Shown: positions 15,147-20,659 of the stretch, one piece after another | Numbering within the stretch: the stretch's first letter is position 1 | Layout of the letters: each line of letters starts with the position of its first letter | NCBI GenBank assembly: GCA_016700375.1 | Contig: CP065016.1 | Span: forward strand, 1,020,001 to 1,052,000 | Direction of reading: 5' to 3' | Source: Candidatus Saccharimonadota bacterium | GTDB lineage: Bacteria > Patescibacteriota > Saccharimonadia > Saccharimonadales > UBA4665 | Length of the DNA: 32,000 nt | Translations under genes and position numbers: made by a program | Notes under the pieces: model-generated | Told to the model about the DNA's origin: nothing | Seen by the model: the letters and a program-made list of their open reading frames with translations, nothing else | The model's database searches: none

Positions 15147-16610
15147 CTAGACTAGAGCCGTGTTAATAGTTTGGATAATACCCTCCACCTCCTGCTTTGA
15201 AGATGCCTTAATCGTACCGTCTTCATTAAAGAGGCCTACCTTGGGAGTTTTATCTTTTGGCTTATCTCGTATGTCGTCTGTTGTCCATTTTTGAATAAGG
15301 TCAGTGCCATATACAGCCGTAGCCATCTGGTAGTCCGCTACGCTGTCATTATCGTAAATAGCAGATGGTTTAATACCTAGTGCAGTCGCCAGTTTTAGCC
15401 AATTAAGTATACTGCCCGCACCATCAGCACCGTGTCCGCATATTTCAAAGTTCGCCCTTATATGTTCACTGAGAATATACTCACGTAAAATATTTGCGTC
15501 GTCTAAACCTTCAACCATTAAAACTCTATCAGCAAAAACAATCTCTCTCGAAATAATGTCTAGGTTATGCTGTCGCCTAGGCTGTGTAGTAAATCTTATA
15601 TCAGGGTGTTTATCTCTGGAAAGCTCGTACACTTCGGCTTGCTCGCCATCGCTTGAGGCTATTCTAATTATCTTTGCACCTTTAGGTATAATATCCCAAC
15701 TTATCATATAAGGTGAGTGTGTAGCCATTATGACCTGAACATTTCTCGATATCTCTTTTATATACTCATAGAGCTTCTTTTGAGCTTGGGGGTGTAGGGA
15801 GGCTTCAGGTTCATCTAGGACGAGCATACTAACTTGTTGCTGAATACCGTTTATAGCACCCGCCTGACTTTCTCTGATAAGCAGCAAGTAGGCACAAATA
15901 ACCATAATGGTTTGTACGCCATCACCAACCAGTGCCATATCGATAACTTGGTTCGATTGGGTCGAGCGATAAAGGGCTTGATACTTATTGCCTCTTTGCC
16001 TCAGTAGTTCAAAACCTGTGTAATTTGGTATAAACTCTCTCACTAAATCGGTATATTTTTCAGTGAGGTTGTCGCTCTCGGAAATAACGAGTAGAGTGCT
16101 GAGAAAGTTCTGATTTGGCTTTCGTGTTTCCTCAAAGTTCTGGTTTGAACCATAGTTATTTGATACGTTTTGAGACACTTGATAAAGCTGGTTAATACGG
16201 TCAGTATCTGTGGGATTTGGATTTCCGCCAAGCATACCCATATAAACGTTTGATGCCTCAAATGCCCAGCGTCTATCAGAGGGCAAGTACATACTGATAA
16301 TATTTGGCCATTGACCCTCAGGCTCTTGAATAATGGTAGGGTTGGTTTGATTTTTTGAGTATTGAATAATACCTTTTTTATCACCCGCATCCACAATTAT
16401 CTTTGGGCTATCTGAAGTCCAGTCCTCACGGTTAACCTGATTATAATAGCCCGTACCAATAAGATTGAGTACCGATGACTTGCCTACATTATTCGAGCCT
16501 ACAATTACATTTAGACCAATTTTATCGTTATCGGGTTTTTGAAACTCGATTGTACGAGATGCCTTAAATAATCTAAAGCCCTCAATAGTGAGCTTACTTA
16601 TGCTGTCCAC
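15147..16610 (-). CDS. OLD-family nuclease: ABC/AAA_15-like ATPase fused to a TOPRIM domain (487 aa, GTG start)
   Basis: Walker A GSNNVGKSS (16473-16499), Walker B LVLDEPE (15804-15824) and ATHSPYMI. TOPRIM acidic motifs VLMVEGLDD (15498-15524) and IYDNDS (15342-15359). Confidence 0.8.
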   Translation of the reverse strand: MDSISKLTIEGFRLFKASRTIEFQKPDNDKIGLNVIVGSNNVGKSSVLNLIGTGYYNQVNREDWTSDSPKIIVDAGDKKGIIQYSKNQTNPTIIQEPEGQWPNIISMYLPSDRRWAFEASNVYMGMLGGNPNPTDTDRINQLYQVSQNVSNNYGSNQNFEETRKPNQNFLSTLLVISESDNLTEKYTDLVREFIPNYTGFELLRQRGNKYQALYRSTQSNQVIDMALVGDGVQTIMVICAYLLLIRESQAGAINGIQQQVSMLVLDEPEASLHPQAQKKLYEYIKEISRNVQVIMATHSPYMISWDIIPKGAKIIRIASSDGEQAEVYELSRDKHPDIRFTTQPRRQHNLDIISREIVFADRVLMVEGLDDANILREYILSEHIRANFEICGHGADGAGSILNWLKLATALGIKPSAIYDNDSVADYQMATAVYGTDLIQKWTTDDIRDKPKDKTPKVGLFNEDGTIKASSKQEVEGIIQTINTALV

Positions 16611-16786
16611 GTCTACATTATAGTCCCCCTACCTATCAAAAAGTGTATTTTAGTCAGTCCGTAAACGCACTACCTACCTAAAATGTTCCGACGACTAAAA
16701 ATCCTATGTTTTGGAAATCGCCCAACAATAAAATATAGTTAACAGGGGTGAAATATTGTTGGGAATAAAGATAGTAAAATGAGTGT

Positions 16787-19700: not shown

Positions 19701-20659
19701 ACTATGACGGCCTTATTGGCTGTAATGCCCAATACTTTAAGCTGGAACTTGTCATAATCGAATGGAAAGAATATCTCTGTACTGCCATCGTCTGATACGG
19801 CCTGTTCTATTGCCATATCTTCGTCAGATACCCAGCTTCCTAAGGAAGTCTCAATCAGGTCTTCATCTTCAAGAGCAGCAATCGCCCTAAGGTCTTCAGC
19901 TAAAAAGTGGTTAGTCTTATTCGTAATCGCAACTATGCTGGTATCAAAACTTGGTGATTCAGAAATGGACTTGGCATCTACTCTATCAAGTTGCACTCTA
20001 ATTGCTGACCACAAATCTTCAATAAACTCACTTCCGATTGGGAGGCTAGTCTTACCCTCAGCTTCCGAGTCGGCAACAAACTTAAAAACGTTATCGTAGT
20101 ATTGTTGCGGCAAGTAGTTTTTGAGTGGGCCGCTCAATACTTCTACATAGCTATCGGGTAGCTCAATGACTACATTAGCTCCATCGCTCGTGTATCTAAA
20201 GTTAATGGCAGCTACTGGAATTTGTAACAACGGTGCTTCGTAGTTTTCATACTCTTCACCGAACTCGGTCTCCTTGTAGCGTTTACCCTCAAAGGATATA
20301 AAGCCAGTCTGCAAGACGACCCTCTTTGTATATTCGTCAGTTTTTATCTTTGTGTCAATTTCTTGGATTTTATCGAAGATAGCCCTGTCGCGTACAACGC
20401 GATGCTCAGCCTGGAGCTGTTCGTCAGTCTTATCTTCACTCGATAAGTCTGGGTCATATTGGCTGCCCAATGAGGTGACTAGGTTGATTGTTGTCGAGTC
20501 GACTTCACTTTTAAAAATCAAATCGGCGACAGGCACGAGGCTGCCGTCCATAGGCTCAGTCTTAATCGGTCGACTTCTTGAGGCACTACTTGATATTAGG
20601 CTTACATAGTCAAGACCGTATTTTGCTAGTTGACTGATAGTTACTGGTATTTTTGTCAT
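16787..20659 (-). CDS. Giant SF1B (Upf1/Dna2-like, DUF4011-type) helicase fused to a Vsr/DUF559-like PD-(D/E)xK endonuclease and a WYL-like C-terminal domain (1290 aa)
   Basis: GPPGTGKS (19673-19696), YVIIDEASQC (18389-18418), FFGDTLQM, YHYRSPKEL, IDGIQGDERDIVIYSFV, GRVNVAFSRARLQV. Endonuclease signature KIDLVVHHNGRKLAIECDGPTHF (17366-17434). The tail INIRYQ..YWRSVNLIKYDGTYLYSEG..YPIRYRRDRVLEF lies at about 16790-17020. Confidence 0.8.
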   Translation of the reverse strand: MTKIPVTISQLAKYGLDYVSLISSSASRSRPIKTEPMDGSLVPVADLIFKSEVDSTTINLVTSLGSQYDPDLSSEDKTDEQLQAEHRVVRDRAIFDKIQEIDTKIKTDEYTKRVVLQTGFISFEGKRYKETEFGEEYENYEAPLLQIPVAAINFRYTSDGANVVIELPDSYVEVLSGPLKNYLPQQYYDNVFKFVADSEAEGKTSLPIGSEFIEDLWSAIRVQLDRVDAKSISESPSFDTSIVAITNKTNHFLAEDLRAIAALEDEDLIETSLGSWVSDEDMAIEQAVSDDGSTEIFFPFDYDKFQLKVLGITANKAVIVEGPPGTGKSQTISNLLVHLASTGKRILFASQKDQAIRGVKDKLKTLDVPFLFGYIPDKTSKLYTADDEKDSAANTLIALNREFQKGKVGDLKEPLELLADRSKIFVENMSIERSLYSLYEERRNLGYLDPYYNYGIDLEFYNQCLDFEKTIENLESAIKQFENAHSKFIRTADTKFKDLEIDYQGTIASIENVNDYFKTHMPERSGFFASKVNDLKLRSALREHCKSIPQEIYVEFEKILFSDNTKSAKLKLLDGLKAYFVYSNDNQILANTRSELDEFLQNKDMPHTALASLKKIVSEHGSENKVFEDLERYSEISAHIDEASLYSANELNREIKDIRKFYRKNITNYVRNRILTRVGEANNSKELRATLAQVARSLSKSKKANKTFDRLKHNEDNFSAMSKVLPIWMMSLDDVSRIVPLEMNAFDYVIIDEASQCNFAYAFPAMYRAEHTIFFGDTLQMRDDNIMFKSNDQLNAIAKKHKIPDVYQIKAEEDTVKSVMDIANLNGFKTTTLKYHYRSPKELIGFSNEAYYEPIGRKLEAVNDNIVPYKDTGRVLLNHLVTPNDNEEMGSRTNIAEIHKIQQLVEEIKIDPILKDKSIAILTFFNEQAEEIRKAIPDEDIKVSIIDGIQGDERDIVIYSFVIKDPCDKRRYIALTGEGGEIRKDIAAGRVNVAFSRARLQVHCVTSLATELWPEGIWIKKYLEYVDKNGAISRRHSKAEQRFDSHFEEQVFNYLSKQLDANEFTLETQAESLGFKIDLVVHHNGRKLAIECDGPTHFEGGDGQVYVQNDWERQGALEVAGWTFYRISYFDWVDDQAEEEKALLVHLGEFFNDEHNAGKTSVVKELEKETVAPEDAPKDTYITDFSDERVDNVSPVNATPAPRATRTKAKTSTKKEFSVGDRGVDQEVFEGYLQARSGGTINIRYQSTRPGSGNYWRSVNLIKYDGTYLYSEGSGSYPIRYRRDRVLEFK

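Follow-up and report, generated by a model that had tools for sequence, protein, structure and literature searches.

A helicase-nuclease gene and a short OLD nuclease gene beside tRNA-Gly in a Candidatus Saccharimonadota genome: probably two separately acquired defence-type single genes

In Gabija systems, a helicase of superfamily 1A (SF1A) that resembles UvrD/PcrA/Rep is encoded immediately downstream of a gene for an OLD-family ATPase-TOPRIM nuclease, whereas Class 1 OLD nucleases are defined as single genes (PMC10568477, PMC7049728). Class 1 OLD genes provide defence without a partner (PMC12392090, PMC10568477); one of the enzymes, Vc OLD, nicks DNA and suffices to block the replication of phage genomes (PMC12392090). 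A validated defence in which one gene encodes both helicase and nuclease is Hhe, with T7 DNA-metabolism genes among its triggers (10.1101/2024.10.10.617714). Gabija and Hhe occur in Halomonas at a distance of 1 kb from each other, each annotated as a system of its own (PMC11232893). Analysis of a 32,000-nt stretch of a Candidatus Saccharimonadota genome (contig CP065016.1, positions 1,020,001 to 1,052,000; here called the window) revealed two adjacent genes of related types on the reverse strand. An open reading frame (ORF) of 1290 amino acids (aa) with an ATG start (16787 to 20659), the product of which is called HEL here, encodes a helicase-nuclease of superfamily 1B (SF1B). It is followed after a spacer of 176 nt (16611 to 16786) by an ORF of 487 aa with a GTG start (15147 to 16610), which encodes an OLD nuclease. 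A preliminary description regarded the pair as one operon and one system with Gabija-like logic. Comparison with relatives of both genes points instead to two single genes of defence type that are autonomous and were acquired separately at a tRNA-Gly hotspot, a reading to which we assign a probability of roughly 0.7.

The neighbourhoods of helicase relatives were compared in 77 loci (one genome per species, 81 to 35% helicase identity) and in 6 additional loci from close relatives. The hosts were Saccharibacteria, many other phyla of the candidate phyla radiation (CPR) and a few metagenome-assembled genomes (MAGs) labelled otherwise; loci are cited here by L numbers. An orthologue of the window's OLD gene was found in none of the 77 and 6 helicase loci, including those of the 94%, 85% and 81% relatives. 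A tblastn search of the 77 loci with the OLD protein revealed an OLD-like gene in only two, both from Moranbacteria (OLD identity 23 to 26%, helicase identity about 37%). In the 77 loci, no other gene of the window was conserved beside the helicase and no conserved partner gene of the helicase was detected. Nine OLD relatives share more than 60% identity with the window protein, and every locus recovered for them was helicase-free (L078 and L079, 88%; L094, 79%; L080 to L082, 77%; L095, 76%; L083, 64%). Distant members of the short OLD subfamily (about 30% identity) were solitary as well. Most of the 9 loci with close OLD homologues have the gene downstream of a tRNA, with a variable slot in between that HEL fills in the window. 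The OLD gene follows the tRNA 3' end by 165 nt in L095 and by about 250 nt in L083. In L078 and L080 to L082 it lies 2 to 2.5 kb after tRNA-Gly, with an LMWPc gene and small ORFs, or a major facilitator superfamily (MFS) transporter gene, in between. In L095 the gene stands directly after the tRNA terminator and must therefore be expressed alone. Synteny of the two genes in other genomes was thus not borne out, because OLD relatives occur without the helicase and helicase relatives occur without an OLD orthologue; no relative of either gene keeps the pairing.

Comparison of the DNA around each gene by blastn revealed separate homology footprints. The footprint of HEL, as compared with L084 and L088, starts at 16786 to 16788 and extends to 20718, so that about 45 to 60 nt upstream of the ORF are included. 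The footprint of OLD, as compared with L078 and L080, extends from 14997/15015 to 16680/16713 and includes about 70 to 100 nt upstream and about 130 nt downstream. Both footprints stop inside the 176-nt spacer, which thus comprises a cassette junction and the own leader of OLD. This leader of about 130 nt, with a G-rich ribosome-binding stretch and a TATAAT box, is kept in solitary OLD loci. Scans of the spacer and the window with consensus promoters and terminators gave counts not above those of shuffled sequences. The absence of OLD orthologues at helicase loci and of the helicase at OLD loci, together with the split footprints and the separate OLD leader, speaks against the description as one operon or system. 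Arrival of the pair on a single repeat-bounded element was also rejected, given the OLD-only relatives at like tRNA sites, the separate footprints and the lack of any relative with both genes.

The helicase gene is associated with recombinases in other genomes. In Candidatus Saccharimonas aalborgensis (94%) and L088 (85%), it is preceded by three divergent genes, one of 163 to 167 aa, one of 58 aa and a serine recombinase gene of 522 to 525 aa; in L088, the helicase-carrying element has a recombinase ORF that overlaps tRNA-Gly at its 3' end. Clustering of neighbours within 3 kb of the helicase identified large serine recombinases as the sole family that recurs across lineages (11 of the 77 loci, confirmed by Pfam). 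Downstream of the helicase, an Mrr_cat-like protein is encoded in L084 (S. aalborgensis), a PDC-M36A homologue in L088 (2e-45) and a HEPN_LA2681+TPR protein in L003. In the simplest reading of these data, OLD would be the older, tRNA-linked resident at the tRNA-Gly hotspot of its clade, and HEL a later arrival in the tRNA-proximal slot between tRNA-Gly and OLD. HEL would then be mobile cargo, accompanied in other genomes by a large serine recombinase, and it was probably brought here by a serine-recombinase element, the recombinase module of which is no longer present.

Two further observations were made at helicase loci. A gene for a 286-aa reverse transcriptase (RVT_1) is separated from the helicase by about 5 kb in S. 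aalborgensis (L084, 19096 to 19956), and L013 has a copy with 75% identity (14919 to 15752), about 1 kb downstream of its helicase gene; the reverse transcriptase gene could be a retron or abortive infection (Abi)-type defence gene of the same islands. One Saccharibacteria MAG carries two divergent helicase paralogues with 36% and 38% identity to the query (L071, CAZXKC010000004.1, and L075, CAZXKC010000003.1).

Analysis of the HEL sequence located the helicase motifs GPPGTGKS (19673 to 19696, with K328 as the Walker A lysine) and DEASQ (18392 to 18406), as well as GDTLQM, YHYRSP, QGDERDIVIYS and VAFSRAR; the distance from Walker A to motif II is 430 aa, with an insert of about 420 aa between them. 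A nuclease signature is formed by KIDLVVHH (17411 to 17434) and AIECDGPTHF (17366 to 17395). Pfam matches were obtained for AAA_11 (1.3e-14), AAA_12 (9.4e-20) and the MTES_1575 restriction endonuclease (REase) domain (PF18741, 1.9e-17, residues 1047 to 1144), which has been described previously (PMC3710099). Profiles from the Protein Data Bank (PDB) matched the helicase core to IGHMBP2 (7e-13), Sen1 (1e-8) and Dna2 (5e-7). The protein therefore comprises, all on the reverse strand, a family-specific N-terminal domain (residues 1 to 280; 19820 to 20659), an SF1B core of the Upf1/IGHMBP2/Dna2 type (residues about 300 to 1040; 17540 to 19762) and a Vsr-fold REase-like domain of the MTES_1575 type (residues 1047 to 1144; 17228 to 17521). 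A linker modelled at low confidence by AlphaFold2 (AF2), probably disordered (17000 to 17212), leads to a C-terminal tail with a WYL-like/Sm fold (residues 1221 to 1290; 16790 to 16999). Alignment with 14 diverse homologues revealed that the helicase motif residues and the nuclease residues D1078, E1091, D1093 and H1097 are invariant, and the MTES_1575 nuclease is present in all of the 77 helicase loci. The anatomy given in the preliminary description, an SF1B motor with a Vsr-like nuclease, was thereby corroborated. Its label "DUF4011-type" was not supported: DUF4011 (PF13195) was matched neither by the full protein at E<=0.1 nor by the N terminus at E<=10.

The N-terminal domain was modelled by AF2 with a predicted local distance difference test (pLDDT) score of about 90 (residues 30 to 250). 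Foldseek returned no meaningful match in the PDB (probability <=0.13), and the isolated fragment of residues 1 to 310 had no Pfam match even at E<=10. The domain is present in 75 of the 77 helicase loci, and a HMMER search of 1.84 billion representative proteins detected it in just 46 clusters, always at the N terminus of proteins of about 1150 to 1450 aa. By these searches, the domain is private to the helicase family. The C-terminal tail was predicted at a pLDDT of about 90 as one helix and a five-stranded barrel. Its top Foldseek match was the single-stranded DNA-binding WYL domain of DriD (8tpk_B; 29% identity over 72 columns, probability 1.0, weak E value of 0.027), and Hfq/Sm folds scored about as well; residues 1214 to 1290 had no match to Pfam WYL (PF13280) at E<=10. 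Thus, of the WYL/SH3-like tail proposed previously, the WYL-like character is retained for the predicted fold only, and membership in the WYL family is not supported by Pfam. The tail was found in 31 of the 77 loci, all labelled Saccharibacteria/Saccharimonadales or unclassified, whereas the N terminus, core and nuclease are essentially universal. A WYL domain serves as an accessory single-stranded DNA (ssDNA)-binding module in a bacterial PIF1 SF1B helicase (10.1101/163188). As in bacterial PIF1-WYL proteins such as that of Thermotoga elfii, the small C-terminal beta-barrel of HEL is fused to an SF1B helicase; it differs from WYL accessory modules by the missing Pfam match and the weak Foldseek score.

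HEL is 94% identical to L336_0164 of S. aalborgensis and shows 69 to 85% identity between distinct Saccharibacteria lineages. The family reaches human-oral Nanosynbacter (one 90% cluster holds 188 members) and other CPR phyla. A phage collection searched with the helicase returned only 2 weak matches (about 25% identity). A loose tie of the family to the Hhe class is given by distant plasmid-borne relatives (26 to 30% identity), the annotations of which name DUF4011 or DUF3320 proteins. Comparison with PADLOC models ranked PDC-S37 first (1.5e-66, 223 bits; residues 656 to 1186 against model positions 852 to 1363 of 1550), followed by Hhe (4.6e-28) and the Mokosh helicases. Among NCBIfam models, ProA (NF058533) reached 213.8 bits against a cut-off of 1500 and Hhe (NF042953) 135.3 bits against a cut-off of 2000. 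The ProA match (3.3e-63), like that of PDC-S37, covers HEL residues from about 650 to 1190, i.e., motifs II to VI and the nuclease; in both cases only the C-terminal half is aligned (ProA model positions 1207 to 1739 of 1903). A literature search on the names ProA and PDC-S37 yielded nothing usable.

HEL shares with Hhe the arrangement of one large polypeptide in which an SF1 helicase is joined to a C-terminal nuclease of the Vsr/MTES_1575 type, and it also occurs as a stand-alone gene in mobile or defence contexts. The NCBIfam match to Hhe (1.5e-39) extends over the C-terminal lobe of the helicase and the nuclease. However, only profile positions 1472 to 1722 of 1797 are aligned, HEL comprises about 1290 aa compared with about 1800 to 1900 aa in Hhe, and DUF4011 is replaced by the family-specific N-terminal domain. 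MTES_1575-type proteins have a DUF3320 winged helix-turn-helix C-terminal region (PMC3710099), instead of which HEL carries the WYL-like barrel. Membership of HEL in Hhe or ProA was rejected on the basis of the curated cut-offs and the missing DUF4011. From these sequence comparisons, HEL appears to be an unnamed relative, a new variant, of the single-gene Hhe/ProA/PDC-S37 helicase-nucleases.

All motifs of the OLD protein (GSNNVGKSS, LVLDEPE, ATHSP, VEGLDD and YDNDS) were present as quoted in the preliminary description, and its assignment of an ATP-binding cassette (ABC) ATPase joined to an OLD TOPRIM domain was backed by Pfam: AAA_15 (1.8e-28), AAA_21 (4.5e-25) and OLD-like_TOPRIM (9e-07, residues 359 to 422). 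The ATPase is encoded at about 15621 to 16610 and the TOPRIM domain at about 15261 to 15536, both on the reverse strand. Comparison of 112 homologues revealed at least 99% conservation of K44, D266, E267, H298, E367, D371 and D420, which correspond to the Walker A lysine, the Walker B Asp-Glu, the H-loop histidine and the Glu/Asp ligands of the TOPRIM domain. Conservation of the predicted nuclease and TOPRIM residues, on which the earlier interpretation had depended, thus holds for both proteins. The closest solved structure is that of the Class 1 OLD from Thermus scotoductus (Ts OLD; 6p74, 9.8e-08), and GajA structures follow at about 4e-3. PADLOC likewise ranked "Old" first (4.4e-28), above AriA and all GajA models. 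The protein is 100% identical to one from a Candidatus Saccharibacteria bacterium; beyond the nine relatives with more than 60% identity, identity drops to 39% and then to 32% or less. In common with Class 1 enzymes, the protein carries an ABC ATPase at its N terminus and a TOPRIM domain at its C terminus, and its homologues occur as single genes that lack a dedicated helicase, retron or AriB partner. It differs in its length, 487 aa compared with 528 aa in Ts OLD, in being at most about 30% identical to anything outside a small Saccharimonas clade, and in adjoining another defence-type gene, a pairing unique to this genome. The Old protein of phage P2 comprises about 586 aa. According to its sequence, the window protein appears to be a new member of Class 1, a short OLD nuclease of the stand-alone, Class-1-like type in which the catalytic residues are intact.

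The likeness to Gabija consists of an OLD-family ATPase-TOPRIM nuclease gene beside an SF1 helicase gene on the same strand. HEL, however, is an SF1B helicase (AAA_11/AAA_12), and the Pfam UvrD-helicase model matches its P-loop only (E value of 0.011). In addition, HEL is encoded upstream of OLD and has a nuclease of its own. By size, closest structure and PADLOC rank, the OLD protein is Class-1-like, whereas GajA belongs to Class 2, is larger and has a helical TOPRIM insert. Assignment to a Gabija type was therefore rejected: neither the class of the helicase nor the order of the genes fits, the OLD protein resembles Class 1, and relatives of either gene do not keep the pairing. The preliminary description had refrained from naming a system, and this was upheld: by PADLOC profiles and NCBIfam cut-offs, neither protein belongs to a named equivalog family. 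The defence-type character that it had proposed agrees with the top PADLOC models, namely PDC-S37, Hhe and Mokosh for the helicase and Old, AriA and GajA for the OLD protein.

By comparison with characterised Class 1 enzymes, an ABC-ATPase dimer of the OLD protein would control a two-metal TOPRIM nuclease. By analogy with P2 Old, Ts OLD and Vc OLD, this nuclease may nick or degrade invading DNA and block phage replication. In HEL, the Upf1-like SF1B motor would load on ssDNA of replication or recombination intermediates and move 5' to 3', the Vsr-fold MTES_1575 domain would cut the tracked DNA, and the tail may act as an accessory binder or sensor of ssDNA or oligonucleotides.

Several observations weigh against two independent defence-type genes. 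Anti-phage activity of the HEL subfamily and of OLD, and the substrates of both, are predicted from sequence and analogy, and the WYL assignment leans on the weak Foldseek E value of 0.027. In the window, co-transcription of the two genes is possible because they share one orientation and are separated by 176 nt in which no clear terminator was seen. In 5 of 78 loci, one of them the window, an AAA_15/OLD-type ATPase gene also closely follows the helicase on its downstream side, and the other four belong to very different helicase lineages (81%, 38%, 37% and 37% identity). When the ORFs of 150 aa or more from 1.13 Mb of sequence flanking the helicase were all searched with a sensitive hidden Markov model (HMM), three strong OLD-like matches were obtained, all within 1.6 kb downstream of the helicase (L038, 231 nt; L062, 34 nt and on the opposite strand; L041, 1563 nt). 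The tightest helicase-ATPase pairing was observed in L001, where a 695-aa AAA_15 ATPase is encoded at 13877 to 15964 on the forward strand, 16 nt past the stop codon of the 81% helicase relative. Its N-terminal 430 aa are AriA/AbiLi-like, its C-terminal 265 aa are unassigned, and no TOPRIM match was found in it. Chance alone would not produce this enrichment of the position downstream of the helicase.

Together with the OLD-helicase precedent of Gabija (PMC10568477), the downstream ATPases suggest a facultative two-component system in which a helicase-nuclease and an OLD/AAA_15-type ATPase-nuclease cooperate in a Gabija-like manner, with an SF1B motor. OLD nicks might provide entry sites for the 5' to 3' helicase, or helicase-made ssDNA might feed an OLD exonuclease, and selection would repeatedly join the two gene types. 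The partners are not orthologous, however: a 487-aa Class-1-like protein, a 695-aa AriA/AbiLi-like protein, "Old"-like proteins of 658 and 536 aa and a 434-aa protein encoded on the opposite strand. None of these ATPases lies beside a GajB-type helicase. Moreover, each gene is strongly conserved alone (helicase 69 to 94%, OLD 64 to 88%). The downstream slot elsewhere carries the HEPN_LA2681+TPR, Mrr-like and PDC-M36A proteins, and such varied defence-type cargo is more readily explained by a hotspot than by a partnership. Genes for AAA_15 ATPases rank among the most frequent of defence islands generally. We consider such a facultative system unlikely and read the downstream slot as a hotspot for defence-gene cargo in which AAA_15 ATPases are merely the commonest. 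A stronger form, in which helicase-nucleases and OLD/AAA_15 ATPases repeatedly assemble and act on the same DNA intermediate as a "Gabija with an SF1B helicase-nuclease", would explain why four ATPase subfamilies arrived independently downstream of the helicase in these loci; we regard it as rather doubtful.

A non-immune role of the helicase-nuclease also has to be weighed. In an oral-type Saccharibacteria clade (L014, L016 to L019, L022, L032 and L033; helicase at 10001 to 13852/13900, 47% identity), conserved synteny was observed: in 8 to 9 species, the helicase is flanked by a gene for a peptide-chain release factor on one side and a gene for the ATPase of an ABC transporter on the other. 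There it behaves as a stably inherited gene, which is atypical for defence cargo. This would suit an enzyme of genome or mobile-element maintenance, acting at forks, R-loops, in repair or in element replication under strong purifying selection in reduced Saccharibacteria genomes, with the adjacency to OLD irrelevant. The 69 to 85% identity between distinct lineages, the housekeeping helicases IGHMBP2, Sen1 and Dna2 as closest solved relatives, the WYL domains of PIF1 maintenance helicases (10.1101/163188) and a non-defence role of the archaeal OLD-family ATPase Cran1 (PMC12796447) are in line with it. However, occurrence of the helicase is patchy and its contexts differ even among the 81 to 94% relatives, the best family models are anti-phage (PDC-S37, ProA, Hhe and Mokosh), and the Hhe-type defence architecture typically includes a fused Vsr-like nuclease. 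A core or housekeeping role is less likely because of the variable context, the linkage to serine recombinases and defence-type neighbours, and a G+C content below that of the host backbone. We consider a maintenance function very improbable and retain the reading of two separately acquired single genes.

The setting of the gene pair agrees with the accessory, tRNA-linked location proposed in the preliminary description. Both ORFs, the spacer and every motif that it had quoted were found where it had placed them, and its account of the tRNA, the low G+C content and the flanking repeats was likewise confirmed. ARAGORN and Rfam identified tRNA-Gly(GCC) at 21022 to 21098 on the reverse strand, an integration hotspot that adjoins the island, 363 nt upstream of the HEL ORF. 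The G+C content is 41.8% in HEL and 40.9% in OLD, compared with about 50 to 55% in the backbone. On the reverse strand, the pair is bracketed by direct repeats, which are two copies of a structured element. The tRNA-proximal copy U1 (20832 to 20945; covariance model score 115.1 bits) lies 76 nt downstream of tRNA-Gly, and the distal copy U2 (14815 to 14927; 105.6 bits) ends in a fragment of the tRNA-Gly 3' end (14818 to 14840, 19 of 23 positions identical). A terminator-like hairpin followed by a T-run is located downstream of OLD (14960 to 15002, reverse strand); such a hairpin is also present at the distal end of the L088 helicase island.

The low-GC tract exceeds the gene pair and extends from about 11.1 to 20.7 kb. 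The gene directly downstream of OLD encodes a DUF6157 protein, and the part from about 11150 to 14700 spans DUF6157, DUF1761, an unannotated 323-aa ORF and a prephenate-dehydratase gene. G+C at third codon positions is 0.38 to 0.46 in these genes and 0.53 to 0.61 in the backbone, and decayed copies of the element (13575 to 13684 and 14815 to 14927) sit at the borders between gene groups. This tract looks like successive islets stacked downstream of tRNA-Gly. Two 100% identical copies of a 1318-bp insertion sequence (IS) with an rve-type transposase (415/417 aa) lie in inverted orientation at 4965 to 6282 (reverse strand) and 26528 to 27845 (forward strand), and enclose about 20 kb including the whole island; 4893 to 4971 also equals 28748 to 28826, and a DDE_Tnp_1 transposase gene adjoins the second copy. 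For the bracketed segment of about 20 kb, an invertible nature, a composite structure and an artefact of assembly are all conceivable.

The flanking element is about 110 nt long and consists of three hairpins with the invariant motif UGAG...CGCAAGG. A covariance model built from seven copies located six copies in the window, at 8954 to 9065 and 9110 to 9223 on the forward strand and at 13575 to 13684, 14815 to 14927, 20832 to 20945 and 21151 to 21259 on the reverse strand. Copies beside tRNA-Gly were also found in L078 (7223 to 7328 and 7678 to 7788) and L088 (7296 to 7404), and the model detected none in about 90 other CPR loci. A pattern scan revealed the element in at least 120 metagenome stretches and in no viral contig. 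In 80 of these metagenome loci (L096 to L175), 101 model matches were obtained, mostly full length and with scores of 60 to 106 bits. Analysis of covariation revealed a very strong signal: 95.2% of cells are paired and double changes occur in 32 of 35 pairs; the covariation score was 0.54, compared with 0.16 for shuffled and 0.03 to 0.07 for slid alignments. Within 300 nt of a tRNA, 71 of 72 copies are co-oriented with it. These copies lie half upstream and half downstream, at preferred distances, and involve 15 isotypes. The flanks of the element repeat the 5' or 3' part of the neighbouring tRNA. On inspection, it is embedded in a tRNA-like copy at position about 53/54, or about 25/26 in the tRNA-Gly type. 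Rfam 15 contained no match (E<=1). Identity with a Y RNA was dropped because no Ro/Rsr gene is located nearby, and signal recognition particle (SRP) RNA, 6S RNA and transfer-messenger RNA were dropped because of the missing Rfam match and the multiple copies.

Individual copies revealed further traces of tRNA sequence. In the window, one copy lies within a 164-nt unit (9060 to 9225, forward strand) with complete tRNA-like ends (GGGATTG...CAATCCC-A-CCA). The predicted RNA fold of this unit reaches -81.9 kcal/mol (z = -4.8). The unit is called by neither of the two programs used, ARAGORN and Rfam, and could be an RNA that is expressed on a tRNA scaffold. The initial 25 nt of tRNA-Gly (21074 to 21098) recur exactly 181 nt upstream (21255 to 21279), directly 5' of an element copy. 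Two other genomes and metagenome loci including L113 and L144 share this arrangement; in L088, the corresponding positions are 7275 to 7300 and 7456 to 7481. In L140, a displaced 3' fragment of tRNA-Gln, TTCGAATCCGTCATCCCCAGCTA, is located at about 2600 to 2656 on the reverse strand, 11 nt after the intact tRNA-Gln (2657 to 2730), on top of an element-bearing tRNA copy upstream. This fragment points to repeated T-loop-targeted integration or excision at these tRNA loci. The element could be a small RNA released by maturation of a tRNA scaffold, an intron-like mobile insertion or one arm of sites at which integration is targeted to tRNAs, and it may represent a new RNA family or a tRNA-targeting mini-element.

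CPR bacteria such as Saccharibacteria have tiny genomes in which CRISPR is rare (PMC6509639). The present analysis removes a false lead, as the locus is probably not a new two-gene system, and leaves as a candidate an uncharacterised, strongly conserved helicase-nuclease family that occurs in Saccharibacteria and other CPR phyla and moves with serine recombinases. The locus would be a clean case of a tRNA-linked hotspot that stacks unrelated defence genes so as to mimic operons, and the tRNA-embedded element that marks the borders of the island may be more surprising than the gene pair itself. If the repeated partnership of helicase and ATPase were true, defence genes of CPR bacteria would follow a new rule of modular pairing.

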